Counted from the stretch's first letter, positions 4,083 through 20,231 are shown. The stretch is DNA of 64,000 nt from an uncultured Muribaculaceae bacterium (GCA_964587565.1 CAZPLK010000001.1:701-64700); one strand, 5' to 3'. Numbers and translations are program-made. Notes: generated by a model not told the origin, from the letters alone.

Positions 4083-7000
4083 ATGGTAAAGGGGAATATA
4101 AAAACAAATAATATTAAAAAAGTTAATTACATAATTATTTTAGTATGTATAATTTTTTTGTTGCTTATATCAATTCCTACTATGGCAAGATTTAAAAATA
4201 GAAACACTTTAAAAAGAGTAACTACATGGGATGGTAGTGTCGCTAAAAATTATCGCAGCGGTGACGGTTCAAAAGAAAATCCCTTTTTAATAACCAACGG
4301 TTCTGAATTGGCGCATTTTTCTGAACAATTAGAAACAAATAATTATTTAGATATTTATTTTGAATTAAATAACGATATCATTATTAATGAAGGAATATTT
4401 AAATATGATGCAAATAACGGCATTTTATATATTAAAGATAATATAACTTATTATGTTGATCACGATACTAACAAATATTATAAAACAAAAGAACGTGATG
4501 GTGAGGTTATAGGAACTATTAATACGATGAAATCATTTGATAATTTCAAAGGACATTTTAATGGAAATTCATTTTCTATATTTGGATTTTATTTATCAGA
4601 TGAAATTAGCAATGAACTAGCACCGTTTACTAATTTGAATGGGAATATTAACAATCTTTATTTAGAAAATACAATGATTTATGGTGGTAATTATACTTCC
4701 GGTGTAGTCTCAGTTGCAAATAATAGTGAGTTAGAAAACATTTTTTCATCTGGCTATGTAGTAGGTAACAAGGATTATACATTGAATGAAAAAATAATTA
4801 CGTTACCAAATATAGAAGAAACACTTTCAAATGATGAATTAATTAAAAATGTTGAACTACCTAATAAAATACCATTAATTCACAGTGACATTAAAAACAT
4901 TAGTATTACTGGTAAAGTGGATTTATTAAATAAATGTGATCAAATAACTTTATTTGTAAATGACGTTGAAATAGAAAAAGCTGGGGAATTTGAATTAGAA
5001 CTAAATAATGAAATTTCTAAAAACTTAAATTTTAAACTTGTTTCCCAATGTAATGAAGAAACAAATATAAAAATAACAAATTTGCAATATAATGTGAAAT
5101 ATAATCACTCAGCAACAGCTGGAATTATTGCATTATCGCATAACAATAAATTGAAAAACATAATAAACAAAAGTGAAGTTTATGGTGAATTTATAAGTTC
5201 TGGATTAATTGGTACCAGCATAGATTCATTAACTATAACAAACGCTTATAATAAAGGTGCTATTAACAGCGAGAACAAAGGTGCGGGTTTAATAGGAGTT
5301 ATTGAGCAAAGTGACGATGTAATAATTAACAAATCATTTAATGAAGGTAATATAAATTTAGAAGATAATATAGGTTTAATATCTAATATATATAACGTTG
5401 ATAATATGATCGTTCAAAATAGTTTTAACACAGCTAACACTAATTATTTAATAAACACAATTCAATATTCTGTTGTTAATTTTGAAAATGTCTTTTACAC
5501 AACTGGATTAACACCTATCAAAGACGGTATTTATAATGGAATGATTAACGTTACCTTTTTAGAAAACTTAAAAGACAAGGAATTTTTAACAAATTATTTA
5601 TATTTTGAAGAGTTTGATGAAATAGAAAATATAAGCGAAGGCAAAAAAGTTTGGATTTTTGAAGAGGAAAGTTTGCCAATATTATATATTGATGATTTAA
5701 ACAAACCTCTTGTTAATATAAATGCTTTAACATACTCATGGAATAATTATTCTACTTCATTAAATGGTTATAAATTTTCTAAAAATATAACTTTTAATAT
5801 AGAAGAAGCAAATGAATTAAATAAAGTGGAAAATATATATTATTATATAAGTAACACTAGTGAACCATTATTCAAAGAAGAGTTAAATCAAATTAGTAAG
5901 TGGGAAACTTACAATGACATTGTTCAAATAAAAGAAGAAGGAATTTATGTTATATATGCTAAAATAATCGATATAAATGGAAATGTATTTTATATAAACA
6001 CAGATGCACTAGTCCTTGATTCAACAGGTATAACTTTAAATATAAGTTATAAAGATTTTTCATGGTCAGAATTTAGTAACGATTTAAAACAAATTTATAT
6101 TTACGAGCCTGAAATTTTAAATGTATCTTATAACAGTGTAATTTCATCAATAACTAACGCTCAATATTATATATCAAATGAACAATTAACAAGCAAAGAG
6201 TTAGATCAAATCACTGATTATGGCTGGAACGATTTAGAAGATGATATTTTGGTTAGCAATGTAGGGAATAACATAGTTTATGTAAAATTAATTGATAACT
6301 TTGGTTATGTTACATACGCCAATACTGATAAAATCTATATGGATTCTTATATTAATTCTAAAACATTACTCGGTAGAGGTGTTAAAGATTACCTAAACAA
6401 AGATTATAATATAAACACGAAATCATCTATTACTTTAACTTATAAATATTTAAATGAAGAAGCAAGTGATGATGCAGAATATTCACACAACTTAATTACA
6501 AGTAGTTTATTACCGAAGAATACTATTATTACTTTAATAGATAACATAAAAGAAAAGGTTTACACATACCAAATTCCAACTGATGAAGATTATTATAATT
6601 ATAATAAATCATGCGAATCGAATGATGGTGAATGTTATAAATATGCAACATATCCCTTTACTTTATTTAAAGAGGTCGGAATAGCGAATAAACCATTTGT
6701 GGAAGAGAGTTATTTTGTAGCGGGTAAAATAGAAGAAAACTTTGATGTAATAATAGATTTTTCTAAAACAAACATTACTGAAAATTTAACTAATGTAAAA
6801 GTTAAATTAGAAAAAACTAATAATAATATTTATATTACTACTAATGATAAAAATATTAAAACCTTTAATGTATTACAAGATTCTAATTATAATTTGAAAA
6901 TAAATACTGATTATGAAGATGGTCCGATTTTATACAATACCGATTCAGTAACAAATATTAATTTAACTGGTGGCGTAAAGTATTTTAAAACTAATAATAC

Positions 7001-7757
7001 TGAAATAATTGATACTTCTATTGAAAATAAAATATTAGGACTAGCTATTAGATTAGTAGATAGTGATGGAAAAATTATAGATAAAAAACATCTTAAAAAT
7101 TTAACATTTAAAATAGATAAAAACCAATTTTATCCAGAAAACGATAATGTAATTAGGGCAAAAATAGACAATAATTTTGAAAACTTAAACAAAACCTTAA
7201 CAGTTATAACAAATAAAACAAATAATACATTGAAAAATGGTGAATATTATTTGGAAATAAACACTTATTTGTCAATTGATGGATATTACTTTGATGAAAT
7301 AAGTAAAGACAAAATAAGTATACCAATTATAGTAGATAAAAAAGATTATATGCCATCGCATCTCTTTGATGTCCAAGTGGATGTGGAAAGTCAAATTATA
7401 AACAAAGAAGAAGAAAATGTGGACTTGAATTTTAATATAATACAAGGTGGCGAATTAGAAGAGCCAAACATAAGAATTTCTTTGTACCAAAAAAATCAAT
7501 TAACCGCTTATGATCAAAGTTACTCACTAATTGATTTAGATGATTATATAACTAACAATTTAGAAATAACAAGTCCAAATGTATACTATTTATCAAAAAA
7601 ACCTGTTGAATATACCGAAAAGGAAAAAAACATTAATGAGTACACTTTGAATATAAAAACTAATTTATTAGAAAATCACTCATATAAATTTGTGTTTGAT
7701 TTATATGATAATAATATAAAAATTAGTTCATTAGATAAATATTTCATTGTAAAATAA
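4083..7757 (+). CDS. Large (1224 aa) N-terminally anchored or secreted surface protein with parallel beta-helix-type repeats followed by beta-rich (probably Ig-like) domains
   Basis: N-terminal 'K-rich + IIILVCIIFLLLISIPTMA' signal/anchor. 'GSKENPFLITNGSELAHFSEQ' followed by 'FKGHFNGNSFSIFGFYL' and repeated 'N.G.I.......GGLIG' blocks ('SSGLIGTSIDSLTITNAYNKGAINSENKGAGLIGVIEQS') are typical of adhesin-like beta-helix/GLUG repeats. Confidence 0.55.
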   Translation: MVKGNIKTNNIKKVNYIIILVCIIFLLLISIPTMARFKNRNTLKRVTTWDGSVAKNYRSGDGSKENPFLITNGSELAHFSEQLETNNYLDIYFELNNDIIINEGIFKYDANNGILYIKDNITYYVDHDTNKYYKTKERDGEVIGTINTMKSFDNFKGHFNGNSFSIFGFYLSDEISNELAPFTNLNGNINNLYLENTMIYGGNYTSGVVSVANNSELENIFSSGYVVGNKDYTLNEKIITLPNIEETLSNDELIKNVELPNKIPLIHSDIKNISITGKVDLLNKCDQITLFVNDVEIEKAGEFELELNNEISKNLNFKLVSQCNEETNIKITNLQYNVKYNHSATAGIIALSHNNKLKNIINKSEVYGEFISSGLIGTSIDSLTITNAYNKGAINSENKGAGLIGVIEQSDDVIINKSFNEGNINLEDNIGLISNIYNVDNMIVQNSFNTANTNYLINTIQYSVVNFENVFYTTGLTPIKDGIYNGMINVTFLENLKDKEFLTNYLYFEEFDEIENISEGKKVWIFEEESLPILYIDDLNKPLVNINALTYSWNNYSTSLNGYKFSKNITFNIEEANELNKVENIYYYISNTSEPLFKEELNQISKWETYNDIVQIKEEGIYVIYAKIIDINGNVFYINTDALVLDSTGITLNISYKDFSWSEFSNDLKQIYIYEPEILNVSYNSVISSITNAQYYISNEQLTSKELDQITDYGWNDLEDDILVSNVGNNIVYVKLIDNFGYVTYANTDKIYMDSYINSKTLLGRGVKDYLNKDYNINTKSSITLTYKYLNEEASDDAEYSHNLITSSLLPKNTIITLIDNIKEKVYTYQIPTDEDYYNYNKSCESNDGECYKYATYPFTLFKEVGIANKPFVEESYFVAGKIEENFDVIIDFSKTNITENLTNVKVKLEKTNNNIYITTNDKNIKTFNVLQDSNYNLKINTDYEDGPILYNTDSVTNINLTGGVKYFKTNNTEIIDTSIENKILGLAIRLVDSDGKIIDKKHLKNLTFKIDKNQFYPENDNVIRAKIDNNFENLNKTLTVITNKTNNTLKNGEYYLEINTYLSIDGYYFDEISKDKISIPIIVDKKDYMPSHLFDVQVDVESQIINKEEENVDLNFNIIQGGELEEPNIRISLYQKNQLTAYDQSYSLIDLDDYITNNLEITSPNVYYLSKKPVEYTEKEKNINEYTLNIKTNLLENHSYKFVFDLYDNNIKISSLDKYFIVK

Positions 7758-7768
7758 GAGGTGATTTA

Positions 7769-8314
7769 ATGAAACGTAAAATATATATAATTTTCTTATT
7801 TCTCTTTGCATTAACACTAATGTCAGGGATTACATATTCTATATTTCATTCAAACATTAATTTAAATTCTGTTGATCAAAATGTTGCAAAGTTTATTTTT
7901 AATTCTGAATATGTAGATGAAATAAAGTTGCCGCTTATTGATTTAAAACCGGGTGATAAGGAAGAATTTTTATTTAACGTTAGTAATTATGATAATGAAA
8001 AAACTAGTGATGTAATAATTGAGTACAATTTAATTATAAAAACTTATCATTTCTTACCTTTAAATATTGAATTATATAAAATTAATGAAGATAATGAAGA
8101 AAAAATTTTATCATGTGATGAAACTTTTTCACGAAATGAAGATAATTATTTAATATGCAATACGGATGATTTTTATTTAGATTATAATATAGAAACAATG
8201 GATAATTATAAATTAATCGTCAAATTCCCAAAAGAATTTAATAGTGAAAAATATGCAGGATTAGTTGATTTTCTTGATGTTGAAATTAAAAGTAGACAAA
8301 AAATTGTAAATTAA
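7769..8314 (+). CDS. TasA/camelysin-family secreted protein (181 aa)
   Basis: Signal peptide 'IYIIFLFLFALTLMSGITYSIF'. 'IDLKPGDKEEFLFNVSNYDNEKTSDVIIEYNL' aligns with B. subtilis TasA 'LSNLKPGDKLTKDFQFENNGSLAIKEVLMALNY' (identical 'LKPGDK'). Confidence 0.65.
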   Translation: MKRKIYIIFLFLFALTLMSGITYSIFHSNINLNSVDQNVAKFIFNSEYVDEIKLPLIDLKPGDKEEFLFNVSNYDNEKTSDVIIEYNLIIKTYHFLPLNIELYKINEDNEEKILSCDETFSRNEDNYLICNTDDFYLDYNIETMDNYKLIVKFPKEFNSEKYAGLVDFLDVEIKSRQKIVN

Positions 8315-8326
8315 GGTGGTGCTACG

Positions 8327-9226
8327 TTGAAAAAAAAGAAATATTTTTATTTAGGATTATTTACAATCTTAATGTTTGGATTAATATATTACGGTATTAC
8401 ATTTGCTAAGTATGTTGCAGACATTACACACGATTTTTATTTGCAATCAAAAGGATTTTATTTTACAAGTGATCAACTAAATGAGGAAACTCTTATTAAC
8501 TACAATAATATATGGGATGGTAATAGTGTTTTCTTTAATGTAAAAAACTATTTAAACGAATCTGTAATCTCAACATATGACATTTATTATGATGTTATAT
8601 GTGAAATAGAAGGTGACGCTTCAAACTATTATGAGTGTGATTTAAATGATTCAGGACAAAGTCATATTAATGGCGTACTATCAAATTTTCAAAGTTGTAT
8701 TAATGAAACAAATGATTCCGTTGATGTTAGTCAATTTAATAAAACAGAATGCGAATTAAGTGGTTATAATTGGGTTAATCATAAAATTGTTAAAGATTTA
8801 TTTTTTAATGTAATTCCTCTTAGTCAAAATTATAAAATGGAAAATATATCCGTTCAAATAAAAATAAAGAGTACAAAACCTTATAAAAAGAAATTAATAG
8901 GGCAGTTTAATTTAAGCAAAAGCAATCTTGAAGAAAGTAAGATAGTTTTAAATTATAATAATTATTCAAAATTTGATGAATTGATAATTTCAAATTCACA
9001 TGATGTTTCAAAGTGTGCAGACATTTCATGGGATCCAAACAATATCGTACTTGGTTCAAACGAAAAGCAATTCAATTCATATGTTGTGGAAAGCAATGGA
9101 TATATAAGTGGAATAAAATTAATGTTAAATCCTAAAATGAGCCAAAGTATTATATTTTATAAAAAAGATTTTTCGTTAAACTATAATGTAAATGAGTTTA
9201 CATTAACTGAGTTAGATGAGTGTTAA
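8327..9226 (+). CDS. TasA/camelysin-like secreted protein (299 aa), TTG start
   Basis: RBS 'aaggtggtg'. N-terminal signal followed by 'YGITFAKYVADITHD'. Cys-rich beta-type composition. Related to the minus-strand gene at 16878-17504 ('YSRYVADATGN'). Confidence 0.5.
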   Translation: MKKKKYFYLGLFTILMFGLIYYGITFAKYVADITHDFYLQSKGFYFTSDQLNEETLINYNNIWDGNSVFFNVKNYLNESVISTYDIYYDVICEIEGDASNYYECDLNDSGQSHINGVLSNFQSCINETNDSVDVSQFNKTECELSGYNWVNHKIVKDLFFNVIPLSQNYKMENISVQIKIKSTKPYKKKLIGQFNLSKSNLEESKIVLNYNNYSKFDELIISNSHDVSKCADISWDPNNIVLGSNEKQFNSYVVESNGYISGIKLMLNPKMSQSIIFYKKDFSLNYNVNEFTLTELDEC

Positions 9227-9294: not shown

Positions 9295-9831
9295 ATGAAA
9301 ATATTAAAAGTTGTTAAAAATGTTATTGTAACTACATTAGTAGTGCTGTTTTTTATCTTTGCACTATCAATGACTATGTTATTATTAAACTATAACCAAT
9401 ATGGTGTAACTCAGTTTGAAAATAAATCATTAATTATTATTAGAGATGAAATATCTTCTGATAAATATAAAAAAGGAGATCTTGTTATTACTGAAGCCGG
9501 AAGAGTTAGTAACTTAAAAAAAGGTGATGAATTGTTTGTATATAGATTAAAACGTGATAATACTGTTGAAATTGATTTAGGTATTGTTGATTATGTAGAA
9601 AATGATTCAGTTACATTTGTTAATGGCGAAACTTACAATTCGGAATTTATAGCAGGTAAATCAACAAAGATATATAATGATATAGGAACGACCTTATCTT
9701 TTGTAACTTCAAAATGGGGATTCCTATTTCTAATATTAGTTCCAAGTTTTCTCATTTTTGTATACCAAGTTTATGCATTAATTATTGAAATAAAATATGG
9801 TGAAGAAGATTACTTGTATGATTATGTGTAA
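9295..9831 (+). CDS. SipW-like (TM - beta domain - TM) protein lacking the Ser/His catalytic dyad; probable inactive signal-peptidase paralog
   Basis: Same topology and 'GDLVI...KKGDELFVY' blocks as the two SipW homologs downstream. No 'SGSM' serine box and no 'THR/THE' histidine box. Confidence 0.4.
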   Translation: MKILKVVKNVIVTTLVVLFFIFALSMTMLLLNYNQYGVTQFENKSLIIIRDEISSDKYKKGDLVITEAGRVSNLKKGDELFVYRLKRDNTVEIDLGIVDYVENDSVTFVNGETYNSEFIAGKSTKIYNDIGTTLSFVTSKWGFLFLILVPSFLIFVYQVYALIIEIKYGEEDYLYDYV

Positions 9832-9849
9832 ATTATTACATTTAATATA

Positions 9850-9877
9850 GCACGTTTATTAAAAACGTGTTTTTTTA
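9850..9877 (+). terminator. Rho-independent terminator after the first surface-protein operon
   Basis: Stem cacgttt / aaacgtg (9851-9857 / 9863-9869), loop attaa, followed by an 8-T run. Confidence 0.6.
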
Positions 9878-9975: not shown

Positions 9976-12327
9976 ATGAATAATAATAAAAACGTTGTTG
10001 TTGAAAAAGCAATTAATTTTTTATTGAATATATTGATTTTCATGTTTAGCATATTTTTATTGATATCTGTTTATATTGGATTTCAAACAAGAATTATCGG
10101 TAACGACTATGCTAATTTTTTTGGATATTCTTTGTTTGAAGTGCAAAGCGGAAGTATGGAAGATGAAATCAAAATTGGTGATTGGATTGTTGTAAAGCTA
10201 ACTAAAAACGTTGATTTTAATGATATTATAACATTTGAATTAGACGGAGAATTTGTAACACATCGCATTGTAGAGGTATATAAAGGTACTTTTGTTACAC
10301 AAGGGGATGCAAATAATAAAAAAGATGATCCAATAGATCAAAGTCAAGTAGTTGGTAAAGTAGTAAAAGTTTTAGGAGGGTTTGGCATTATAAGAAAGAC
10401 ATTATTTAATCCAATAGTATTATTATCACTTATAATTACGTTATTGTTGTTTAACTTTGCTTTTAAAAGTAATAAAATTAGTATAAACAATGAGTTAATA
10501 AATAATTTGTTAGAAAGTTTAGGTAATTTCATTGAAAACATTACTAATAAATTTAATAAATTGCTCAATAAAGACGAAATAAATGAAAGTTTCTTTGAAA
10601 AACAAAATTTAAATAGTGGTTTTATGAGTATAGAAAAGCAAGATGATTTTTTTGAAACAAAAGAATATGAAAAATTAGAAGAAGAATTAAGTAAAACCGC
10701 ATTGTATAGAGTAGTGACGGTTGATAAAGATAACGTTAAAGAAGATTTTAAAGTTTTAACGCCACAAAAAAAGACAGTAGAACAAATAGAAGAAGACTTG
10801 AGCAAAACATCATTGTACAGAATTATATCAGCTAATACAGAAGATGTCCCAAACAAATATAAAAACACTGACGTCAAAGTAAGTAGTAAAACTCAAACTC
10901 AAAAATATGCAGAAATTGAGGATGAATTAGGGAAAACTTCAATTTTCAGGGTAATATCAGTTGATAACGAAGAAGGCGAAAATGAAAAGCAAGAAAAGAT
11001 AAGCGAAACTTCACTGCATCGCTTTGTATCGGTAAATAATAATGAAACTGATAAAACTATTTCTGAAATCGCAAAACATGAAATAAAAGAGGAGCAGAAG
11101 CCTGAGAATGTAAAAATTAATCAAGAAGATAAAGAAATTACAAAAGTGGAAAAAGAAGATGATGAACACACTAAAGAAGAAGGGTTAACGGATATTAATT
11201 TAGAACTATTAAAAAGTAAAAATAGCAGACGTGGTAAAAATATTATTGATAAAACAATGATTATTAAAAAAGAAGAGTTAGATGAATTAATTGATATTTT
11301 AGTAAAAGACGATCCTACATATGTATACCGCGCAAGGGTTAAAGACAGATTCATCATATCTTACACTGATGCAAAATATTATAATTATTATGGTGCTGTT
11401 GAAATCGAAACACGTGGCAGGAACTTAACATCTAGAATAAAAGTTATTATTAAAATCTTAACTGAAGATATAATAAAAGAATACAAAGGCAAAGATAAAA
11501 ATTACCATGAAATTATTGAAAAATACTTAAAATTATTTACACTAATTGCCGATTTAGAGCAAGCAAGGGATTCAGCAACTACTGTAACAGCAAAAAAGAA
11601 ATTATATAGCAAATACCTTAATGATTATTTTGGCAATGTTAAACAAAGTGAAATAAATAATTTGATTGATGAAATTATGGATGTTCAACAAAGATACTTG
11701 GATACTATTAATTACTTTTTAGATCAACTAAAAACGAATGCTTTCGTACTGACTCAAAATAAAATAGTAGGTGCTAGGAACATGTTTGGACTATCACTTG
11801 AACATAATATTACGTTTAGTAAAGTTTATAGCGATTACATTATTGATAAAACATATACCGAGGGAATTGTGGCGGAAGATAAAGTATCAGTATTACTATC
11901 ACTGTTATCAGTACAATTAGTTGATGATATGTTAAATGCCAACTTTGACAACAAATATGTTGTTCATATACCAGTAAGTTTATACGGGAAAAAGCGCAAA
12001 TTGGCAAGTACTTTAAGACTTATAGATAATGAATATGCTAAAAGTAATATTATAATTTTAATTGAATATAAAGACTTATTAAAAAACAGACAAGTTGTTA
12101 AAGAATACAAAAAATCAGGATATAGATTTGGCTTAACATTTCATAAAAATGATAATTTATTAAAAAAGGATCACTCGTTATTATATATAGTAAATTGTTT
12201 CTTTATAAACAGAAGAACAAATGATATGAAAAAGATAATTTTATCAATACCAGAAGAATTATCGGATAAAATTATATCAGATGATGTTATTACTAAAGTG
12301 GGTGATTTTGGGGGTGAATCAACATGA
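9976..12327 (+). CDS. Type I signal peptidase SipW (archaeal-type S26) fused to a 4x tandem-repeat linker and a large cytoplasmic C-terminal domain resembling a degenerate EAL domain
   Basis: N-terminal TM. 'SGSMEDEIKIGDWIVVKL', 'VTHRIVEV' and 'TQGDANNKKDDPID' match the B. subtilis SipW Ser/His/GDAN boxes. A second TM ('PIVLLSLIITLLLFNFAF'). Four repeats of 'EE[ED]L[SG]KT[AS][LI][YF]R[VI][VI][ST]V[DN]'. C-terminal domain has 'YGAVEIETRG', 'ILIEYKDLL', 'GYRFGLTFHKND' and 'LLYIVNCFFINRR', which resemble the EAL blocks GvEALlRW / lEiTE / DDFGTG / lKIDrsF. Confidence 0.6.
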   Translation: MNNNKNVVVEKAINFLLNILIFMFSIFLLISVYIGFQTRIIGNDYANFFGYSLFEVQSGSMEDEIKIGDWIVVKLTKNVDFNDIITFELDGEFVTHRIVEVYKGTFVTQGDANNKKDDPIDQSQVVGKVVKVLGGFGIIRKTLFNPIVLLSLIITLLLFNFAFKSNKISINNELINNLLESLGNFIENITNKFNKLLNKDEINESFFEKQNLNSGFMSIEKQDDFFETKEYEKLEEELSKTALYRVVTVDKDNVKEDFKVLTPQKKTVEQIEEDLSKTSLYRIISANTEDVPNKYKNTDVKVSSKTQTQKYAEIEDELGKTSIFRVISVDNEEGENEKQEKISETSLHRFVSVNNNETDKTISEIAKHEIKEEQKPENVKINQEDKEITKVEKEDDEHTKEEGLTDINLELLKSKNSRRGKNIIDKTMIIKKEELDELIDILVKDDPTYVYRARVKDRFIISYTDAKYYNYYGAVEIETRGRNLTSRIKVIIKILTEDIIKEYKGKDKNYHEIIEKYLKLFTLIADLEQARDSATTVTAKKKLYSKYLNDYFGNVKQSEINNLIDEIMDVQQRYLDTINYFLDQLKTNAFVLTQNKIVGARNMFGLSLEHNITFSKVYSDYIIDKTYTEGIVAEDKVSVLLSLLSVQLVDDMLNANFDNKYVVHIPVSLYGKKRKLASTLRLIDNEYAKSNIIILIEYKDLLKNRQVVKEYKKSGYRFGLTFHKNDNLLKKDHSLLYIVNCFFINRRTNDMKKIILSIPEELSDKIISDDVITKVGDFGGEST

Positions 12328-13850
12328 ATACATTTTTTAGATTTTTCTATGAATTTATTTCAGTTTTTATTTCGGGTATTACATTAGTAATAAAAGGATT
12401 GATTGCAGGGGTTATTCAAATTATAAACGTTAGAGAGTATCAAAAAATTATTAATAGTTATAAAGAAAACTTTAAAACCTCTCAATGGATTTTAGTTGGA
12501 TTTTCGATCGCACTTTTAGTAATCATTATAGCTCTTGTAATATTTTTAATAATTATAGGAATTAGAAGGTTTTTAAGATTTAGAAGAACAAGATTAAATC
12601 AAGAAGATTTATTAGATGAAATTGCAGATTTAAACGATCAAGTTAGGAAGTTAATGAAGGAAAAAGATGAAATAATGGCAATGAAAGTATCAAAACTGGG
12701 TCTTAAACCTGGTGAAGAAGGTTATGAAGATAGCTTAGAAGAGTTAGAAGATGGTGAAATCGATATGTCCAATATTAGATTTCCAAAATTACATAAAATT
12801 GATCAAGATTATAAAAACTTTAAAGCAAGAAATTATAATAATAACTTTACATTAGAAGAATTAGTTGATAATTTTCAAGCTTATGCAGCTAGTCAATTAA
12901 AGCTTTATTACGAAAAATCTTTATTAAGAGCATTTATAGGTGGTTTATCAACTGGACGTTTAATTATATTACAAGGTATATCCGGAACTGGTAAAACATC
13001 CTTAGCTTATGCTTGGGGGAAGTTCGTTAACAAGGATTCTTGTGTGGCATTTGTTGAACCGTCATGGCGAGATAAAACTGAATTTCTAGGTTATTTTAAT
13101 GAATTTACAAAAAAATTTAACGAAACAGATGTATTAGCAGAACTTTATGTCGCATCGCTGGATGATGATGTTCATACGATTATTCTTGATGAAATGAATA
13201 TAGCACGAGTAGAATATTATTTTGCAGAAATGCTTTCTATTTTAGAAATGCCATCACGTGATGAGTGGATTATTGAATTGGTTACAAGTTCTTGGAAAGA
13301 AGATCCGGAAAGGATTGTGGGTGGTAAATTAAAACTACCTGGTAATTTATGGTATATCGGTACCATTAATAATGACGATTCAACGTTTATGGTTACTGAT
13401 AAAGTTTATGACCGTGCGATGCCAATAGATATTAATAATCGTATTGATCCATTTGAAACAAGAGAACAAGAAGCGATGAGTATCAATGCTAGTTATTTAG
13501 AAAATTTATTTGAAGAAGCTACAAAAACTCATCCAGTGTCGGCGGAAAATTTACAAAAAATTAAAGACATGGATGATTATGTAATAAAACATTTTAGAGT
13601 TGCTTTTGGTAACAGAATTATGATGCAACTACAAACATTTGTACCTGTTTATGTTGCTGGAGGTGGTTCCGAAGTAGAAGCGATAGATTACTTTATTGCA
13701 CGAAAAATATTCCGTAAATTCGATCAATTAAATTTTGCACTTATCCGTAATGAAATCGATCCGTTTATTGAATATTTAAACAAAGAATTTGGAGACGGTG
13801 TTATGAAAGAATCAATTGATTATTTTGAATTATTAAAAAAATCAATGTAA
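12324..13850 (+). CDS. Membrane-anchored McrB-like AAA+ GTPase (AAA_5 family) with an N-terminal TM hairpin and a coiled coil
   Basis: 'LIILQGISGTGKTSLAYAWGKFV' matches McrB 'IILQGPPGVGKTFVARRLAYLL'; 'FVEPSWRDKTEFLGYF' matches 'QFHQSYSYEDFIQGY'; 'IILDEMNIARVEYYFAEMLSILE' matches 'FIIDEINRANLSKVFGEVMMLME'; 'NLWYIGTINNDDSTFMVTDKVYDRAMPIDI' matches '[31 protein letters not shown]'. N-terminus 'WILVGFSIALLVIIIALVIFLIIIGIRRFLRFRR' is a TM segment. 4-nt overlap with the upstream gene. Confidence 0.7.
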   Translation: MNTFFRFFYEFISVFISGITLVIKGLIAGVIQIINVREYQKIINSYKENFKTSQWILVGFSIALLVIIIALVIFLIIIGIRRFLRFRRTRLNQEDLLDEIADLNDQVRKLMKEKDEIMAMKVSKLGLKPGEEGYEDSLEELEDGEIDMSNIRFPKLHKIDQDYKNFKARNYNNNFTLEELVDNFQAYAASQLKLYYEKSLLRAFIGGLSTGRLIILQGISGTGKTSLAYAWGKFVNKDSCVAFVEPSWRDKTEFLGYFNEFTKKFNETDVLAELYVASLDDDVHTIILDEMNIARVEYYFAEMLSILEMPSRDEWIIELVTSSWKEDPERIVGGKLKLPGNLWYIGTINNDDSTFMVTDKVYDRAMPIDINNRIDPFETREQEAMSINASYLENLFEEATKTHPVSAENLQKIKDMDDYVIKHFRVAFGNRIMMQLQTFVPVYVAGGGSEVEAIDYFIARKIFRKFDQLNFALIRNEIDPFIEYLNKEFGDGVMKESIDYFELLKKSM

Positions 13851-13863
13851 AGGGTGATTAAAA

Positions 13864-14997
13864 ATGTCTAAGGCCATAAAGGTAAGTATAGATGAAAAAT
13901 TAAGGAAAAAAAGTAATACATTTAGCAACAGAATAAAATCAGATATGTACTTTAAGGGTGAGGTTTCTGGCGAATCAATTTCATTTGAATGGTTGGATAT
14001 AATTGAAGAAGCTTGCCCTTACTTAGATAATGTTATTAGAAATCCTAGAGTTGCACTTATTACTGAAGAAGAAATTGTTAAAATAGAAAAAGCTAAAAAG
14101 GTCTCTGTTGCTAGTGTTAAAAATTTAGCTAAAAACACACAATACATTGATAAAATTGATAAAGTAACAGAAGATGTGCAACCGTCACGACTTTTAATTG
14201 AAAGACGTGAAGAAACATATAATACATACGAAAACAGATTTCTTTTTACAGTTGTAAAATTATTAATAAGATTTGTCGCTGACAAAGAAGAATCATTAAA
14301 AGAATTGATTATGAAAAAAGATAAAGTTATGGAATATGCTGCTGTTACTAACACAGACACAGAAAGAGTTAATATTAAATTAAATATTTCTACAAGTGAA
14401 ATACCAAAAGAAGTTATGGCTGATGCCTATGAAAATGAAATTAATAATGTTAAAAATCGTTTAAAAGAAATTAATGCATATTTTTCTATGTGGCAAAGAA
14501 GTGATTTTATGACTTCATTAGAAAAAGCTAGAGTAACTCCGGTATCGCCTCCAATAAGAAAGACAAACTTAATCTTAAAAAATCCTAATTTTCAAATGGC
14601 TACAAAATTATGGGAGTTTTTGAGAAATTACGAAGATGAAGAAAAAGATGAAACAAAAGTTGATTTGGAAACAACTGGAAATAAAATGTTAAAAGGAATA
14701 TTGGATGATATGTTTTTAACAAATTATTTTGTTTTAGATTCAATAAAAGCTGATAAAAGTGCTGAAAAGGAAAAATTAACTAAATATGCTGTCTTAATGT
14801 TAACACAACAAGTTAGACGTGCAATTCAACTATTAATAGATAGTGGGGTTGAAATTTCAGATGAAGAGATAATTAGTATGATTTCAGCTGAAATTAAAGC
14901 AGACGAAGGGAAAACAACAGCAGATAGTTCTGATGTTAAGAGAAAATTTAAAAAAGCTGTTGATGATTATATAGAGAAAATGCAAGATTATTTGTAG
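13864..14997 (+). CDS. Hypothetical cytoplasmic partner of the McrB-like GTPase (possible McrC-N-terminal/DUF2357-like activator; no nuclease motif)
   Basis: Starts 13 nt after the GTPase gene with RBS 'aagggtga'. Contains 'ETYNTYENRFLFTVVKLLIRFV', which resembles the 'NxxENRF' block seen in McrC-like partners. No PD-(D/E)xK motif found. Confidence 0.3.
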   Translation: MSKAIKVSIDEKLRKKSNTFSNRIKSDMYFKGEVSGESISFEWLDIIEEACPYLDNVIRNPRVALITEEEIVKIEKAKKVSVASVKNLAKNTQYIDKIDKVTEDVQPSRLLIERREETYNTYENRFLFTVVKLLIRFVADKEESLKELIMKKDKVMEYAAVTNTDTERVNIKLNISTSEIPKEVMADAYENEINNVKNRLKEINAYFSMWQRSDFMTSLEKARVTPVSPPIRKTNLILKNPNFQMATKLWEFLRNYEDEEKDETKVDLETTGNKMLKGILDDMFLTNYFVLDSIKADKSAEKEKLTKYAVLMLTQQVRRAIQLLIDSGVEISDEEIISMISAEIKADEGKTTADSSDVKRKFKKAVDDYIEKMQDYL

Positions 14998-15005
14998 GTG
15001 GTAAA

Positions 15006-15569
15006 ATGAATATAATAAATGAAAATAAAATTTTAAAAATAATAATAAAAATTATTAAAACAGCTATTTTGATTTTTTTATTAGGATTTATACTAGTTGT
15101 TTGCTTACAGCGCTTTAGCAATAATAAGATTTCTTTTTTTAAATATCGAATGTTTATAGTAGTATCAGGCAGTATGTATCCGGTTTATGACATAGGAGAT
15201 GTATTAATAGCTAAAGAAGTCAAACCTTCAACGATTAAAGTTGGTGATGCAATTAGTTATGAAGGTAAAGTAGGAGATTTAAAAGGCAAAGTAATAACAC
15301 ACGAGGTTATAAAAATAGATTATGATAAAGATTCCAATAAATATAAATTTCATGCAAAAGGTCGTGCAAACGTTATTGAAGATCCAATTGTTTCAGAAGA
15401 ACAATTATATGGAATAGTAATCCATAAAACTTTGTTACTGTCAATGATTTATAAAATAATAGGTACTCAACTGGGATTTTTCTTAGCTATTATAATACCC
15501 TTATTATATATATTTACCTCTGAGATTATTGGGTTTTTACTAGAACGTGAGGCTAAAAGAAGAGGTTAA
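15006..15569 (+). CDS. sipW: Type I signal peptidase SipW (archaeal/eukaryotic-type S26)
   Basis: N-terminal TM, 'FIVVSGSMYPVYDIGDVLIAKEV', 'VITHEVIKI', 'AKGRANVIEDPI', C-terminal TM; matches the B. subtilis SipW boxes. Confidence 0.7.
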   Translation: MNIINENKILKIIIKIIKTAILIFLLGFILVVCLQRFSNNKISFFKYRMFIVVSGSMYPVYDIGDVLIAKEVKPSTIKVGDAISYEGKVGDLKGKVITHEVIKIDYDKDSNKYKFHAKGRANVIEDPIVSEEQLYGIVIHKTLLLSMIYKIIGTQLGFFLAIIIPLLYIFTSEIIGFLLEREAKRRG

Positions 15570-15595: not shown

Positions 15596-16834
15596 ATGAA
15601 AAACAAGTATAAAGTTTACTGGCGTATAAATTTATTGTCGTTATTTTTTATCATCTTATCATTCATATCGGTTACATTGGCTTGGTTTGCCTATAGTGGA
15701 CTTTCTAATGTATCAACTGAAATTGGAGTAAAAGCTTGGTATATTACACTGGAAAAAGACGGTGAAATGATCTCGAATGATATTGTTATATCATCATCGG
15801 AAATATACCCAGGTATGGAAACATTGACAGAGACAGTTAAAATTCAAAATTTAGGAGATTCAGATGCAAATATAAGGTATTCAATTTTATCAGCAAGAAT
15901 ATTAGATCAACCTGAAAATAATTTTGTTGTAAATGACAAAACTGTTACAAGTGATTATGTTGAGGATCAATTATCGCATAGTTATCCTTTCAAAGTTAAT
16001 ATAAATTTATCAAAAGGATATGTTCTTGCAAAAGGTGATGAAAGTTTTTTTGAAGTTTCAATATCATGGCCACTTGATTCTGGTGATGATGGGTTAGATA
16101 GTTATTGGGGAAGTGAAGCTTTTAAGTTTCAACAAAGTGAAACAAATAGGAAAAGTGCTAATCCAGAATATCAAAAAAAACAACCTATACAAATAGTAAT
16201 TAGTGTAATCGCTGAACAAGATGTTGGTGATGAAAATTCAAATGATCCCAACTTTAATTTGGGAGATCAAATATTATTTGATGTAATTAATAATAAATCA
16301 TGTAAAGAATTAAGTGAGACTTGTATATCAACGTATGTAATTGATAGTAATAATAAAATAGCAAATAACAAAGTAACGCTTTTACCAACCCCTAGAAAGA
16401 CTTATTTAAGTGGTATTTATAGTAATTACAATTCTTTATTAAAGGGGGTAACAAGTGATTGGAATGTTGAAACACGGGCATTATATATTGAAGATATATT
16501 AAACGTAATATCAACAGATATTTTTAATTCAAAACTATTAAGTGATGAAATAACTGGAGTAGTAATCGGTGATTTAAAGTATCCGAATCGAATTCAAACA
16601 GAAATAGAAAAAGTAAAAAGTACAAATGGTTATTATAATTTTCGCAATGAGAAATTCCAATACATTTCCACAGCAAACTGTTATTGGATTAACAGTAGAT
16701 ATAATTCATCTAAATCATTTGCTATTAAGAGAGTTAATGAAGAAATTTCAAAAGTGTATGGTTTAGATAATAATTCTACATGTAATGTTGTCCCTGTAAT
16801 TACAGTGGATAAAAACAAAATAAAACAGGATTAA
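15596..16834 (+). CDS. TasA/camelysin-family secreted protein (412 aa) with SipW-cognate signal
   Basis: 'ISVTLAWFAYSGLSNVSTEIGVKAWYITL' aligns with CalY 'GGGTFAYFSDKEVSNNTFAAGTLDLTL'. 'VKIQNLGDSDANIRYSI' aligns with 'LLQNSGSLTIKDVKL'. Confidence 0.65.
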   Translation: MKNKYKVYWRINLLSLFFIILSFISVTLAWFAYSGLSNVSTEIGVKAWYITLEKDGEMISNDIVISSSEIYPGMETLTETVKIQNLGDSDANIRYSILSARILDQPENNFVVNDKTVTSDYVEDQLSHSYPFKVNINLSKGYVLAKGDESFFEVSISWPLDSGDDGLDSYWGSEAFKFQQSETNRKSANPEYQKKQPIQIVISVIAEQDVGDENSNDPNFNLGDQILFDVINNKSCKELSETCISTYVIDSNNKIANNKVTLLPTPRKTYLSGIYSNYNSLLKGVTSDWNVETRALYIEDILNVISTDIFNSKLLSDEITGVVIGDLKYPNRIQTEIEKVKSTNGYYNFRNEKFQYISTANCYWINSRYNSSKSFAIKRVNEEISKVYGLDNNSTCNVVPVITVDKNKIKQD

Positions 16835-16850
16835 CAAATCCTGTTTTACT
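16822..16850. terminator. Bidirectional rho-independent terminator between convergent genes
   Basis: 10-bp stem aaaacaggat / atcctgtttt, loop taacaa (contains the stop codon), T-rich on both sides. Confidence 0.6.
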
Positions 16851-16877
16851 TTGCAATATTGAATTATTTATGCCATT

Positions 16878-17504
16878 TTATTCAAATATTTGCTTAAATG
16901 ATACATCAGCTTTAATTTGTAATGTTATGTCTTCCGTAGCTGCCAAATGTCCGATCATTGAATCGTCTTCATCATTCATTAATTCCTCTTCACCCTCATA
17001 CCATTCAAAAAATATTCTTATAGTAAATGGTTTAAATTTAAAGTCCTCTTCTTCTTTGTTAAAGATTAATGCCTTTTTAATTTCTTTATCGTTTAAATTT
17101 ATTATTTCTATCGGATCATCTTCAATATAAGAGTCAGGTAAGATTGCATATTTAGTAATTATTAAATCAGGTATATTTTCATTTTGGACTTCTAAATTTA
17201 CTAAGTATTCAAACGATACTTCAACATTACTAGCATCTATCTTAATATCGAAATACCCTTTAGATGTTGGGGCGATTTTATTAGGCGCAATGTACTCGCT
17301 TTCTTCAATAATTGGTTCAAACATCAATGAAGATTCTGAGTTATTTGTAATATCTTCATTATTAACGAGTATTTGCCATTTAGCAAAAGTAGCCTCAATA
17401 TTCCCAGTTGCATCAGCAACATATCGTGAATATGTGGTACTCATAAGACAAAGACAAATGGATAAAGATAACATCCCAATTAAAAATTTTATTTTTCTAA
17501 ACAT
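16878..17504 (-). CDS. TasA/camelysin-like secreted protein (208 aa)
   Basis: Signal peptide then 'TTYSRYVADATGNIEATFAKWQIL', paralogous to 8327-9226. RBS 'aaaggagg' upstream on the minus strand. Confidence 0.5.
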   Translation of the reverse strand: MFRKIKFLIGMLSLSICLCLMSTTYSRYVADATGNIEATFAKWQILVNNEDITNNSESSLMFEPIIEESEYIAPNKIAPTSKGYFDIKIDASNVEVSFEYLVNLEVQNENIPDLIITKYAILPDSYIEDDPIEIINLNDKEIKKALIFNKEEEDFKFKPFTIRIFFEWYEGEEELMNDEDDSMIGHLAATEDITLQIKADVSFKQIFE

Positions 17505-18002: not shown

Positions 18003-19228
18003 AATTATTTGACGAATTAAAATGGAGAGGGCTTATAGATAACATAACTAGCCCGGAGCTTGAACAAAAATTAAATGAAGGATGTTTAACTTTTTATATA
18101 GGTACGGATCCAACTGGTGATAGTCTCCACATTGGACACTTATCATCTTTATTAGTAGCACAAAGGCTATTTAACGCTGGACATAAACCTATAATTTTAG
18201 TTGGTGGTGCAACAGGTTTAATCGGTGATCCTAAGCCAAGTTCAGAAAGGCCTATGATTACAAAAGAAAAATTAGACTATAATTATAAAATGTTATCTAA
18301 GCAAATTCAAGACTTATTTGAATTTAAAATGGTTAATAATTATGATTGGTCTAAAAATATTAATTTTATTGATTATTTAAGGGATTACGGAAAATATTTT
18401 AGTGTCAATTACATGTTAGCTAAAGATACTGTAAAAAAACGGCTTGAAATAGGAATTACATATACAGAATTTTCTTATATGATTTTGCAGGCACTAGATT
18501 TTTTATATTTATATGAAAATGAAAATTGTGTTATGCAAATTGGTGGTCAAGATCAATGGGGAAATATAACATCTGGAATAGAACTAATAAGAAAAAAAGT
18601 TGGTGGTCAAGCATATGGTTTTACAATGCCTTTAATAACTAAGGCTGATGGCGATAAATTTGGTAAAAGTGAAGGTGGTACAATTTGGCTGGATAAAACA
18701 AAAACATCACCATATGAAATGTATCAATTTTTAATAAATACCGAAGATTCAAAAGTAATTGAGTATTTAAAAAAATTAACATTTCTAAGTTTTGACGAAA
18801 TAAATAAATTAGAAAAAAGTTTAAAAGAAGAACCACACTTGAGATTAGCACAGCAGAGGCTAGCCGAAGAAATTATCACCTTTTTACACGGAAGTAATGA
18901 ATATAAAACAGCATTAAAAATAAGCGAATCGCTATTTAGTGGTGCAGTTAAAAATTTAAGTGCGGAAGAAATAACTGTTGCATTTAAAGGTTTGCCTAAC
19001 TTTAAAATTACAGAAAAAATTAATATAGTAGATTTTTTAGTGAAATTCGATATATGTTCTAGTAAAAGGGAAGCAAGAGAATTTTTAAAAAGCGGGTCCA
19101 TAACAATAAATGATAATAAAGTATTATCACTTGAAACTAATGTAGACAAAAACATGGCAATTTACAACAACTTTATAGTTGTAAGGAGAGGGAAAAAGAA
19201 ATATTTTTTAGGATATTTTGAAAGGTAA
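17999..19228 (+). CDS. tyrS: Tyrosyl-tRNA synthetase
   Basis: 'GTDPTGDSLHIGHL' (HIGH), 'KFGKSEGG' (KMSKS), C-terminal S4-like domain. GTG start with RBS 'ggagg'. Confidence 0.95.
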   Translation: MKLFDELKWRGLIDNITSPELEQKLNEGCLTFYIGTDPTGDSLHIGHLSSLLVAQRLFNAGHKPIILVGGATGLIGDPKPSSERPMITKEKLDYNYKMLSKQIQDLFEFKMVNNYDWSKNINFIDYLRDYGKYFSVNYMLAKDTVKKRLEIGITYTEFSYMILQALDFLYLYENENCVMQIGGQDQWGNITSGIELIRKKVGGQAYGFTMPLITKADGDKFGKSEGGTIWLDKTKTSPYEMYQFLINTEDSKVIEYLKKLTFLSFDEINKLEKSLKEEPHLRLAQQRLAEEIITFLHGSNEYKTALKISESLFSGAVKNLSAEEITVAFKGLPNFKITEKINIVDFLVKFDICSSKREAREFLKSGSITINDNKVLSLETNVDKNMAIYNNFIVVRRGKKKYFLGYFER

Positions 19229-19232
19229 CAAA

Positions 19233-20231
19233 ATGAAAAAAATAAAATTTTTAGCTTATAGCATAGCTAACATTAATTTAATTAATATGTTTAAAACTGT
19301 AAAACAAATTAGTAACAAAATAAATAAACCATATATAATTGTACTAATAGATGTAATTTGGTGTGGATTTAAATATCAAGCGGGTTATCATGATTATTTA
19401 GAGTTTGAGTTTTATAATTTAAATAATGAAGAAAGAAAAACTTATATAACAAGAGGAATTAATAACGAAATAATAAAAAGATTTAACGATAAAAGTAAAT
19501 GGCATTATTTTAGTAATAAAGCTTTATTTCATGAAAACTTTTATGATTTTACAAAGCGTGAATTTCTTTGCTTGCACAATAATATAAAAGAATTTGAAAT
19601 GTTTTTGCGCAAACACCAACAAGTAATTGCTAAACCAATTGAAGGTGAAGGTGGTGAAGGTGTTGAGATGATAATTTATAAATCAATTTCTGATATAAAC
19701 AAAATATATAATAAACTAGTTGAAAATAACCAGTTACTTATAGAGGAGTATATAAAGCAACATAAAGGAATGAATGAGTTATACTCTACATCAGTTAATT
19801 CATTAAGAATGTTTACTTTTATAAAAGATAATAATCCACACTTTTTACAGGCAGCATTAAAAATTGGGAATGGAAGTATTATTGATAATTTTGCTGGTGG
19901 CGGGATGTATACAATTTTAAACGATGAAGGAAAAGTAATTTACAGTGCAATTGATAAAAATGATAACATTTATAATGTGCATCCAGTTACAAATAAACAA
20001 ATAATTGGATTTCAAGTACCGTTATTTGACGAAGCTGTCGAGCTAGTTTGCGAAGCAGCTAAAATAATACCTGAGGTCGGTTATATAGGATGGGATGTAG
20101 CAATCAGTGAAAATGGCCCAGTTATTATAGAGGGTAATTGTTATCCAGGTGTTTTCCAAACAAAACCAAGTTTAAAAGAAGACAAAACAGGATCGTTGTT
20201 AAAATACAATGAAGTGATGAAATTGCATTAA
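19233..20231 (+). CDS. ATP-grasp family protein (sugar-transfer-associated ATP-grasp type)
   Basis: Glycine-rich 'KPIEGEGGEGV', 'GGGMYTIL' and a C-terminal 'GWDVAISENGPVIIEGN' ATP-grasp signature. ATG 19233 chosen over the track TTG at 19218. Confidence 0.5.
   Translation: MKKIKFLAYSIANINLINMFKTVKQISNKINKPYIIVLIDVIWCGFKYQAGYHDYLEFEFYNLNNEERKTYITRGINNEIIKRFNDKSKWHYFSNKALFHENFYDFTKREFLCLHNNIKEFEMFLRKHQQVIAKPIEGEGGEGVEMIIYKSISDINKIYNKLVENNQLLIEEYIKQHKGMNELYSTSVNSLRMFTFIKDNNPHFLQAALKIGNGSIIDNFAGGGMYTILNDEGKVIYSAIDKNDNIYNVHPVTNKQIIGFQVPLFDEAVELVCEAAKIIPEVGYIGWDVAISENGPVIIEGNCYPGVFQTKPSLKEDKTGSLLKYNEVMKLH

Follow-up and report, generated by a model that had tools for sequence, protein, structure and literature searches.

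A predicted membrane-anchored McrB-type GTPase encoded in a conserved cluster of SipW-type signal peptidases and secreted proteins

The gene cluster and its distribution

The window, by which we mean the whole stretch of DNA analysed (64,000 nucleotides), carries a gene cluster in which a McrB-like GTPase and a McrC-like partner stand in a context that is entirely related to membrane or secretion, comprising three genes of the SipW family and six proteins that bear signal peptides of the SipW type (Table 1). The GTPase reading frame of the initial annotation proved to be real. A Shine-Dalgarno sequence, GGGGGTGA, lies 8 nt 5' of its start codon at 12324, the start overlaps the stop of the upstream ORF 11296..12327 in an ATGA, and the N-terminus M.TF.rF.yEF is kept in 79 orthologues, which supports this start codon. 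A terminator-like site at 9849-9871 divides the upstream module and the pseudo-peptidase gene from the GTPase operon, and a terminator-like hairpin at 16815-16854 lies at the end of the 412-aa gene.

Table 1. Features of the cluster, with positions counted from the first letter of the window.
Feature	Position	Strand	Basis
Upstream module: three secreted proteins (1224, 181, 299 aa), same signal-peptide class	4083..9226	+	Motif, synteny
SipW-fold pseudo-peptidase (178 aa)	9295..9831	+	Joint alignment; 65/80 loci, with contig ends restricting the count
SipW-type signal peptidase domain of 783-aa fusion (TM, catalytic domain, TM)	9976..10470	+	TIGR02228 1.7e-17, above model cut-off
Cytoplasmic X domain of the fusion: helical bundle and degenerate EAL-like domain	11296..12327	+	EAL-like part ~11743-12285
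McrB-like GTPase gene, putative CoCoPALM GTPase subunit (508 aa)	12324..13850	+	ORF call
Conserved N-terminal helix (residues 1-34)	12324..12425	+	Consensus M.TF.rF.yEF.s.Ff.G; moderately hydrophobic
TM helix (residues 54-80) and basic cluster RRFLRFRRTR (residues 81-90)	12483..12593	+	Hydropathy
Short coiled coil (residues 93-125)	12600..12698	+	Heptad register; mean column conservation 0.76
AAA+ McrB-type GTPase domain and C-terminal lid	12804..13847	+	Alignment to McrB, invariant residues
Walker A GISGTGKT (residues 218-225)	12975-12998	+	Matches GxxGxGK[ST]
Walker B ILDEMN (residues 287-292)	13182-13199	+	Matches hhhhDE
NxD signature NNDDST	13368-13385	+	After sensor-1 strand
McrC-like partner (377 aa), DUF2357 N-domain, all-helical C-terminal half	13864..14997	+	Domain match, AF2
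Second SipW-type peptidase (187 aa)	15006..15569	+	TIGR02228 6e-19, above cut-off; in 78/80 loci
Secreted protein (412 aa), signal-peptide motif VTLAWF, operon's last gene	15596..16834	+	Motif in 56/58 orthologues
Secreted protein (208 aa), signal-peptide motif TTYSRY, convergent	16878..17504	-	Motif in 59/61 orthologues

The order pseudo-SipW, SipW/EAL-like, McrB-like, McrC-like, SipW and two secreted proteins was found at all 80 species-representative loci of our synteny sample, with SipW-family genes detected in 65-78 of them. The 208-aa protein is syntenic in 66 loci and the upstream-module proteins in 36-50, and the flanking housekeeping genes tyrS, rpsD and ezrA adjoin the cluster in just 3-4. 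More than 8000 database matches were obtained for the GTPase, the best 120 full-length ones being almost all 502-517 aa long and 66-79% identical to it; matches occur in at least 459 species-representative genomes, and no other gene of the cluster is conserved as well as this one, whose median identity is 62%. Plasmid and phage collections yielded only matches to the GTPase domain, below 40% identity and without the transmembrane (TM) and coiled-coil N-terminus. The GTPase is a conserved, non-mobile core gene of its lineage and not a sporadic defence gene.

Defence genes are typically patchy and variable, and this bears on an immune function, in which a membrane-associated McrBC derivative would sense phage at the envelope and trigger abortive infection, for instance through a disturbance of the membrane or of secretion. 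The GTPase does have Type IV restriction motors as its ancestors, the candidate defence protein PADLOC PDC-M26A is its strongest match in the library (1.4e-38), and relatives of its GTPase domain are present on plasmids. Furthermore, a TM-less sister branch (for instance P0287 at locus L085, a coiled-coil relative beside the Upf1-like helicases AAA_11/AAA_12) resembles CoCoNuT defence loci. However, high identity and uniform length over hundreds of species, fixed synteny among surface-protein genes, the absence of the TM/coiled-coil form from plasmid and phage collections, and the lack of a nuclease or other recognisable effector in the cluster proteins scanned make such a role decidedly improbable.

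The core of SipW, GTPase and DUF2357 genes, in part with a further SipW gene, appears again at two distant loci, L087 and L089, at a GTPase identity of 48-55%; L087 is surrounded by bona fide GGDEF and EAL genes. At a third locus, L082, a membrane-anchored relative has no SipW gene nearby, and the GTPase module can therefore work in other contexts.

The GTPase domain and its N-terminal region

Four blocks had initially been aligned to E. coli McrB, and all of them could be placed without gaps (6hz4; query residues 194-380). The similarity is specific, McrB chains alone being found among PDB sequences at E<=0.01, both with the single GTPase sequence (2e-4) and with a 41-sequence family profile (9.4e-6). 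To call the homology strong, as was done before, nevertheless overstates a remote relationship, because the Pfam search gave no match to AAA_5 and only weak ones to AAA_22 and AAA_16. By sequence, McrB is a nearer relative of the GTPase than the other AAA+ families are. Invariant among 41 diverse relatives of the broad clade are G218, G221, G223, K224, D289, N292 and R295, together with E297, N349, D351, S353, T354, R364 and R431. The McrB-specific asparagine loop, to which the initial annotation had pointed, is present as GTINNDDST, aligned with GLMNTADRS of E. coli McrB; in N349-N350-D351 the Asn and the third-position Asp are invariant across the wider clade, and position 352 is D, E or Q, so that relatives follow the pattern N-x-D-[D/E/Q]-S-T. 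Read from these residues, the signature is a shortened NxD variant, not the canonical NxxD.

Upstream of this domain, the TM helix (WILVGF...IIIGI) has a Kyte-Doolittle 19-residue mean of 2.9-4.1 in 79/79 orthologues and is followed, across the same 79, by a median of five K/R within 15 residues; because of this cluster, the positive-inside rule places the C-terminal GTPase domain in the cytoplasm. The preceding hydrophobic helix (residues ~10-34) may either cross the membrane as a second TM or lie at its interface, reaching 2.1, at the TM threshold, in the protein of the window and a 19-residue mean of at least 1.6 in just 20 of the 79 orthologues. As for the TM hairpin proposed earlier, the 26-aa string quoted for it is a single helix, and with the second helix behaving in this way a hairpin topology is doubtful. 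The predicted coiled coil is borne out by heptad a/d residues L96, I100, L103, V107, L110 and I117, but it spans about 30 aa rather than the roughly 60 first given, ending at the conserved G126/P129, after which a variable acidic linker extends to residue 160.

Residues 1-160 thus consist of TM helix, coiled coil and acidic linker and gave no DNA-binding or other Pfam domain above threshold, in agreement with the earlier statement that no DNA-binding domain can be recognised. A McrB-type GTPase in which the DNA-binding N-terminus is replaced by a membrane anchor and coiled coil is supported by these sequence features, and we infer from this architecture that it acts at the membrane. The membrane-localised function suggested at the outset is likewise upheld by the TM helix and K/R cluster in 79/79 orthologues, by the missing DNA-binding domain and by the membrane- and secretion-related neighbours.

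In the paragraph that Bell et al. devote to such proteins, the N-terminal TM/coiled-coil module is described as an FtsB homologue (PMC11090510). The conservation of our GTPase gene, for its part, resembles that of housekeeping genes. Both points would suit a factor of cell division or envelope growth that is recruited to the divisome via an FtsB-like module. Nonetheless, hmmscan of residues 1-160 against Pfam and NCBIfam gave no FtsB/DivIC match, and the fixed neighbours are peptidases and secreted proteins instead of division genes, ezrA being near in so few loci, so that we give a division role hardly any credence.

Partner proteins and relation to known systems

DUF2357 is the sole domain detected in the McrC-like protein, for which there was no PDB sequence match; AF2 predicted long helices over residues 186-376 at a low mean pLDDT of 64. 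Its invariant columns contain no conserved D...(D/E)xK, no nuclease fold was seen, and neither HEPN nor other nuclease families were detected in the 12 cluster proteins scanned. Having no nuclease and no DNA-binding domain, the McrB/McrC-like pair is not a restriction system. We therefore rejected canonical McrBC Type IV restriction, for want of the N-terminal modified-DNA-binding domain and of the McrC PD-(D/E)xK nuclease, and also CoCoNuT, as none of these 12 proteins matched HEPN or another nuclease family. With McrBC of E. coli and Thermococcus (6hz4, 6ut6, 6ut5, 7vsr) the pair shares the AAA+ GTPase core, Walker A and B, an Asn/Asp signature after sensor-1 and a DUF2357 partner gene directly downstream of the GTPase, but it differs in lacking the DNA-binding domain and the partner's nuclease, in its NxD instead of NxxD, in its membrane anchor and in being chromosomally conserved rather than sporadic. 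CoCoNuTs, as portrayed by Bell et al., belong to the same NxD GTPase branch, carry a coiled coil N-terminal to the GTPase and often have a McrC homologue that is without active nuclease too; they always include HEPN or another nuclease, and they lack both a TM segment and peptidases (PMC11090510). In our cluster no nuclease was found, and the GTPase is accompanied by SipW peptidases and an EAL-like domain.

CoCoPALM was named by Bell et al. (eLife 2024) in one paragraph, with its analysis deferred to a separate publication (PMC11090510, section 7). The hallmarks given there are an NxD GTPase, usually with D/E following, an FtsB-like TM and coiled coil, neighbours of the signal-peptidase family, and a coiled coil also on the McrC homologue (PMC11090510). 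Our cluster fits this class as described in that paragraph, with its NxD McrB GTPase, TM helix and coiled coil, signal-peptidase genes and DUF2357 McrC with a predicted helical extension, and nothing contradicts membership. New with respect to the accessible text and supplements of Bell et al. (PMC11090510) are the SipW-EAL-like fusion, the pseudo-peptidase, the six SipW-type substrates and the lineage-wide synteny.

Regarding the peptidases, the catalytic S60/H96/D111 of the 783-aa protein are kept in 25/25 orthologues, the 187-aa paralogue retains Ser and His with L, I or R at the Asp position, and in the joint alignment all three catalytic positions of the 178-aa protein are substituted. 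In about half of the species the X domain and the peptidase make up one protein; elsewhere the X domain has its own gene directly upstream of the GTPase. The EAL-like part of the domain was found to have the (beta/alpha) barrel fold of EAL domains, and its nearest fold neighbours include the degenerate receptors LapD, FimX and YdiV. PF00563 gave no match to it even at E<=10, and the catalytic E/N/E/DD/K/E set is absent from 30 X-domain orthologues, which keep only aromatics and one Asp outside the barrel; on these sequence grounds, an EAL c-di-GMP phosphodiesterase was rejected.

Fold neighbours of this kind, the fusion of the X domain to a peptidase with its catalytic domain outside the membrane, and the true GGDEF and EAL genes flanking the distant locus L087 would agree with a nucleotide-sensing switch in the manner of LapD and FimX. 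Here the EAL-like domain, as a putative binder of c-di-GMP or a similar nucleotide, would act jointly with the GTPase in an "inside-out" control of the extracytoplasmic peptidase and so time the release of surface proteins, with no mechanical work. We regard it as unlikely, since no polar residue constellation is conserved in the X-domain family and the whole 64-kb window contains neither a GGDEF nor a DDFGTG motif, though it overlaps with our preferred explanation and does not exclude it. Unlike LapD and FimX, the cluster also has no GGDEF, HAMP or PilZ partners and no sequence similarity to PF00563, and its NTPase belongs to the McrB clade, not to the PilB/GspE family.

Six proteins of the cluster show a conserved [TS][YFL][AS]x[FYW] motif following the h-region (in the upstream module in 13/17, 37/37 and 37/48 orthologues of the 1224-, 181- and 299-aa proteins, respectively) and are, by sequence, candidate SipW substrates. 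The tapA-sipW-tasA operon of Bacillus and the BsaA type of C. perfringens are similar in that genes of ER/archaeal-type signal peptidases are clustered with those of secreted substrates whose h-region ends in a characteristic motif (PMC9245690, PMC11580942). The tapA-sipW-tasA type, however, has one peptidase and no NTPase, whereas three SipW paralogues, one of them dead and one fused to a cytoplasmic domain, accompany a GTPase/McrC pair here. Models of TasA, TapA and camelysin gave nothing above threshold against the secreted proteins, nor did these match a pilin family by sequence.

A proposed role in surface-protein processing or assembly

The role that we favour, at roughly even confidence, is that of a GTP-driven motor or switch on the cytoplasmic face, coupled to the processing or assembly of surface proteins and not to restriction. 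One TM helix and a short coiled-coil stalk are predicted to tether the NxD-type GTPase to the membrane on its cytoplasmic side. By analogy with the solved McrBC complexes, the GTPase may form a ring to which the nuclease-less DUF2357 McrC homologue would bind, stimulating GTP hydrolysis. The motor may be coupled to the SipW-type peptidase through the cytoplasmic helical and degenerate EAL-like domain, presumably by physical contact; the ATGA overlap with its Shine-Dalgarno sequence, the fusion/split pattern and the operon boundaries argue for this coupling. Through GTP turnover the motor might gate or power the steps by which the six surface proteins with SipW signals are processed, released or polymerised, and the output could be a platform for the energy-dependent assembly or "inside-out" control of a surface filament or adhesin layer.

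A membrane protein quality-control machine or dislocase, resembling FtsH or Cdc48, would make different use of the same parts, the ring extracting uncleaved precursors or cleaved signal peptides of the abundant SipW substrates from the membrane and the McrC-like protein serving as adaptor. A predicted AAA+ ring tethered by TM helices directly beneath the membrane, its translational coupling to a signal peptidase, and a catalytically dead peptidase paralogue that could be a substrate trap are all consistent with it. Yet we know of no polypeptide threading by McrB-clade rings, the pore is occupied by McrC in the solved McrBC complexes (6hz4, 6ut6), and the cluster encodes neither a protease nor another partner for degradation, which leaves a dislocase quite unlikely.

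As the sequences of the secreted proteins belong to none of the TasA/camelysin or pilin families, the "filament" output within the proposed motor or switch role is guessed from their class of signal peptide and from what Bell et al. called the system. TasA-type fibres assemble outside the cell without an NTPase (PMC9245690), and the requirement for a motor in our best explanation is therefore unexplained. Tentatively, and with some doubt, an exapted restriction motor could constitute a new machine for surface-filament biogenesis in monoderm bacteria, unrelated to type IV, sortase and chaperone-usher systems, in which a membrane-anchored GTPase ring, activated by a nuclease-less McrC and docked to the peptidase via the EAL-like domain, would spend GTP on passing subunits processed by SipW to a growing pilus or adhesin fibre, perhaps with a second messenger in control.

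Among GTP-dependent restriction motors, McrBC is the textbook example. In hundreds of species of gut Bacilli its core persists at 60-80% identity, with all DNA-directed parts gone, and now stands beside signal peptidases and secreted proteins. Should the model be true, this would be a clear instance of an immune motor recruited for cell-surface construction, and there would be an energy-dependent step in a SipW/TasA-type pathway previously thought to need none. The operon limits, the fused and split forms of the partner and the candidate substrates provide defined constructs for biochemical work and for structure prediction. The uncultured host lineage maintains this conserved cluster of ~16 kb in spite of its small genome, and the product of the cluster is therefore probably of central importance for attachment or persistence of these bacteria in the gut.

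The McrB-like GTPase and its membrane module

The McrB-like GTPase is encoded by an ORF whose ATG overlaps the stop codon of the upstream 783-aa ORF (ATGA), with GGGGGTGA at -8. Phmmer comparison with all PDB sequences revealed E. coli McrB (6hz4) as the sole significant match (E 2e-4, residues 194-380), and the four McrB blocks quoted in the initial annotation all lie inside this alignment. Likewise, a profile of 41 diverse relatives matched nothing but McrB chains in the PDB (9.4e-6). Since, moreover, the AAA_5 model was silent in the Pfam scan and AAA_22 and AAA_16 gave only weak matches, the relationship to McrB, as judged from sequence comparison, is specific but remote. Across 79 full-length orthologues from 80 species-representative genomes, there is essentially no variation in Walker A (ILQGISGTGKTSLAYAWGKF), in Walker B (ILDEMNiaRVEYYF) or in the signature block WYIGTINNDDSTFmVTDKVYDRAMPiDIN.

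The N-terminus had been described as a TM hairpin followed by a coiled coil of roughly 60 aa. In 79/79 orthologues, residues ~55-80 make up a strongly hydrophobic helix (Kyte-Doolittle 19-residue mean 2.9-4.1), and the 15 residues after it contain a median of five Lys/Arg, which, by the positive-inside rule, places the GTPase in the cytoplasm. The first helix (residues ~10-34) is conserved in sequence but passes the TM threshold in only 20 of the 79, so that the predicted hairpin is uncertain; it lacks support across the family, and we dropped it in favour of the single robust helix. The coiled coil displays a clean a/d register (L96, I100, L103, V107, L110, I117) over about 30 residues, half the earlier estimate, and stops at the conserved G126/P129, where a variable acidic linker follows. 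A domain scan of residues 1-160 gave no match to a DNA-binding or any other domain. The initial annotation had proposed that the protein works at the membrane and has no recognisable DNA-binding domain, and this interpretation is supported; its observation is largely correct, with the exception of the hairpin and the coiled-coil length. A canonical restriction system was rejected for lack of a nuclease, a DNA-binding domain and a methyltransferase.

The operon and its peptidase partners

Three genes follow the GTPase gene at gaps of 13, 8 and 26 nt, and terminator-like hairpins flank a five-gene unit encoding the 783-aa, McrB-like, 377-aa (McrC-like), 187-aa and 412-aa proteins. A promoter scan performed no better than chance (133 found vs 136 expected) and was not used. 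The window has about 27% G+C, with tyrS, rpsD, ezrA and thiI close by, indicating chromosomal DNA of a low-GC Bacillota member. A sugar-transfer-associated ATP-grasp gene (PF14397, 1.3e-48), which starts inside the last tyrS codons, accompanies tyrS in the closest relatives as well.

Coordinates of features in the window
Feature	Position	Strand	Basis or remark
178-aa SipW-fold paralogue	9295-9831		
Terminator-like hairpin	9849-9871		
Antisense ORF	10344-10877	-	
Linker repeat, 783-aa protein	10675-11045		residues ~234-356
Antisense ORF	11121-11357	-	
Most conserved X-domain stretch	~11797-11883		fusion residues ~608-636
GDFGGE codons with McrB-like Shine-Dalgarno	12300-12327		
McrB-like GTPase ORF, 508 aa	12324..13850	+	ORF listing
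Antisense ORF	14019-14360	-	
Terminator-like hairpin	16815-16854		
ATP-grasp gene (PF14397)	19218-20231		

The N-terminal part of the 783-aa protein is a SipW/ER-type signal peptidase domain (TIGR02228, 1.7e-17), whose Ser60/His96/Asp111 are kept in 25/25 orthologues. Its cytoplasmic X domain comprises a helical bundle and a degenerate EAL-like domain; it is a stand-alone protein of 304-370 aa in 35 of 77 loci and fused to the peptidase in 40. Fused or split, it is encoded immediately before the GTPase gene, mostly at a distance of -3 to +18 nt, and this pattern argues for a physical link from peptidase to motor. The 187-aa SipW paralogue retains Ser and His and has lost Asp, while in the 178-aa paralogue, conserved just upstream of the GTPase operon, Ser, His and Asp are all replaced in 25/25 orthologues, which identifies it as a putative pseudo-peptidase. 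Sequence searches of the PDB with the McrC-like protein and with the X domain returned only noise.

In six further cluster proteins, the n-region is basic, the h-region hydrophobic and the motif [TS][YFL][AS]x[FYW] conserved, a predicted layout that is that of SipW-cognate signal peptides. TIGR04088 (cognate_SipW signal) gave sub-threshold hints on the secreted proteins (0.006-0.035), and their mature parts matched no known family in Pfam or NCBIfam. Assignment to the TasA, camelysin, TapA or pilin families was rejected, as the hints were sub-threshold (TapA 0.023).

Some observations on the fusion protein are recorded here in their own right. Its cytoplasmic linker between the SipW and EAL-like domains carries three to four copies of the short motif E-[ED]-L-[SG]-K-T-[SA]-[LI]-[YF]-R-[VI]-[VI]-S-V-D; as no more than 7 of 40 fused orthologues contain the strict pattern (one to three times), the repeat was kept out of the model. 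The C-terminal GDFGGE of the family is encoded by the Shine-Dalgarno sequence of the GTPase gene, so its conservation may mirror the ribosome-binding site. The most conserved X-domain stretch, NIxFSKVYSDYIIDKTYxEGIIAEDK, has an AF2 pLDDT below 50 and could serve as a peptide that docks on the GTPase or on the McrC-like protein. Long antisense ORFs inside the fusion and McrC-like genes have low-complexity, Ser/Leu/Phe-rich translations and therefore most likely arise as a side effect of the AT-rich coding strand.

Relatives and distribution

When the GTPase domain was searched exhaustively with HMMER, 7993 cluster representatives were obtained, of which 704 fell below 1e-30. The 40 that were inspected in full all share N-x-D-[D/E/Q]-S-T. 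Aligned jointly, the sequences vary at residue 352 and never at N349 or D351; the signature of the window GTPase reads as the 'NxD, usually followed by D/E' variant. The N-termini of the relatives are diverse, including helix/TM/coiled coil as here, two TM without coiled coil, signal peptide plus large ectodomain plus TM, 4-6 TM, and long TM-less coiled coils, one of which adjoins Upf1-like helicases and is CoCoNuT-like. Modules of the ectodomain or 4-6 TM type are found on several close relatives (P0265, P0267, P0290, P0295, P0296, P0302, P0305 and P0310); for the multi-TM example, at locus L082, the downstream partner measures 520 aa, and no SipW gene lies closer than 8 kb.

Two distant members with the same N-terminus, at the loci L087 and L089, have SipW directly upstream and a DUF2357 gene downstream. 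In L087 (1-15439), where the GTPase is 55% identical, a second SipW follows the 623-aa DUF2357 protein, and the core is surrounded by bona fide GGDEF and EAL genes, which encode one protein of the former type and two of the latter that match PF00563, one of these 949 aa long (2.8e-52).

Bell et al. (eLife 2024, PMC11090510) mention in section 7 that 'another large clade' of the NxD branch has the GTPase fused to an FtsB-like TM and coiled-coil domain, name these systems CoCoPALM and defer their analysis to a forthcoming paper. The supplements searched hold no CoCoPALM details, and our literature search found no later paper mentioning the name. The window locus shows each of the published CoCoPALM features that lent itself to a test, and the gene is a new member of an already named, unexplored class. 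FtsB or DivIC homology of the N-terminus was not reproduced with hmmscan. A role in the divisome, to which the published FtsB-like label might point, we consider very improbable.

A word-indexed search returned at least 8000 scored candidates, of which the best 120 are almost all full-length (502-517 aa), 66-79% identical and from MAGs labelled Bacilli, Mollicutes or Tenericutes. Scanning one genome per species gave at least 459 stretches that encode the protein. Gene order is constant in the best 80 of these loci (pseudo-SipW, SipW/EAL-like, McrB-like, McrC-like, SipW, 412-aa homologue and, on the other strand, the 208-aa homologue), and the tyrS, rpsD and ezrA flanks are common to only 3-4. 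No cluster gene is better conserved than that of the GTPase (median 62% identity). Plasmid and phage collections contained only GTPase-domain matches, all below 40% identity and without the N-terminal module. With constant order, variable flanks and no such module in these collections, the distribution is that of a lineage-core gene cluster and not of a mobile defence island. The best plasmid match (L090, Polaromonas plasmid pPNAP01, 3696-8029) covers the GTPase domain alone, at 36% identity. This 'AAA family ATPase' of 813 aa is encoded on a conjugative IncP plasmid, after another AAA-domain protein and before a hypothetical protein of 631 aa whose gene overlaps its own; it is probably a CoCoNuT-type relative.

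The PADLOC candidate-defence model PDC-M26A matches the GTPase far better than the PDB does (1.4e-38), and a literature search found 'PDC-M26' in no paper. Set beside the lineage-core distribution, a membrane-linked defence system seems to us quite unlikely.

A proposed role in surface-protein handling

In the cluster, a GTPase of the McrB type, predicted to be cytoplasmic and tethered by a TM helix and a coiled coil, stands with a McrC homologue that lacks a nuclease. A degenerate EAL-like domain, either joined to an intact SipW peptidase or the product of a gene next to it, is translationally coupled to the GTPase, and three SipW paralogues and six candidate substrates complete the fixed arrangement. 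By analogy with solved McrBC complexes, the GTPase would form a hexamer, and the McrC homologue would enter the ring and stimulate hydrolysis. Judged from the gene context, the output would be control of, or mechanical help for, the processing, release or assembly of surface proteins. We hold this reading of a GTPase motor controlling or assisting these steps with moderate confidence; its main weaknesses are that none of the secreted proteins is recognisable with certainty as a filament subunit and that no NTPase is known to be required for TasA-type fibres (PMC9245690). A nucleotide-sensing inside-out switch alone, which overlaps in part with the motor model, is a tentative alternative of rather low probability, and a membrane dislocase or quality-control role for the tethered GTPase appears unlikely.

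The CoCoPALM-type architecture is already in print. New here are the link of the EAL-like domain to SipW, the pseudo-peptidase, the set of candidate substrates, the boundaries of the operon and the synteny across the lineage, all of which bring the system within reach of experiments. A restriction motor turned to such a use would be a striking exaptation, and in gut Bacilli the cluster is a prominent feature.
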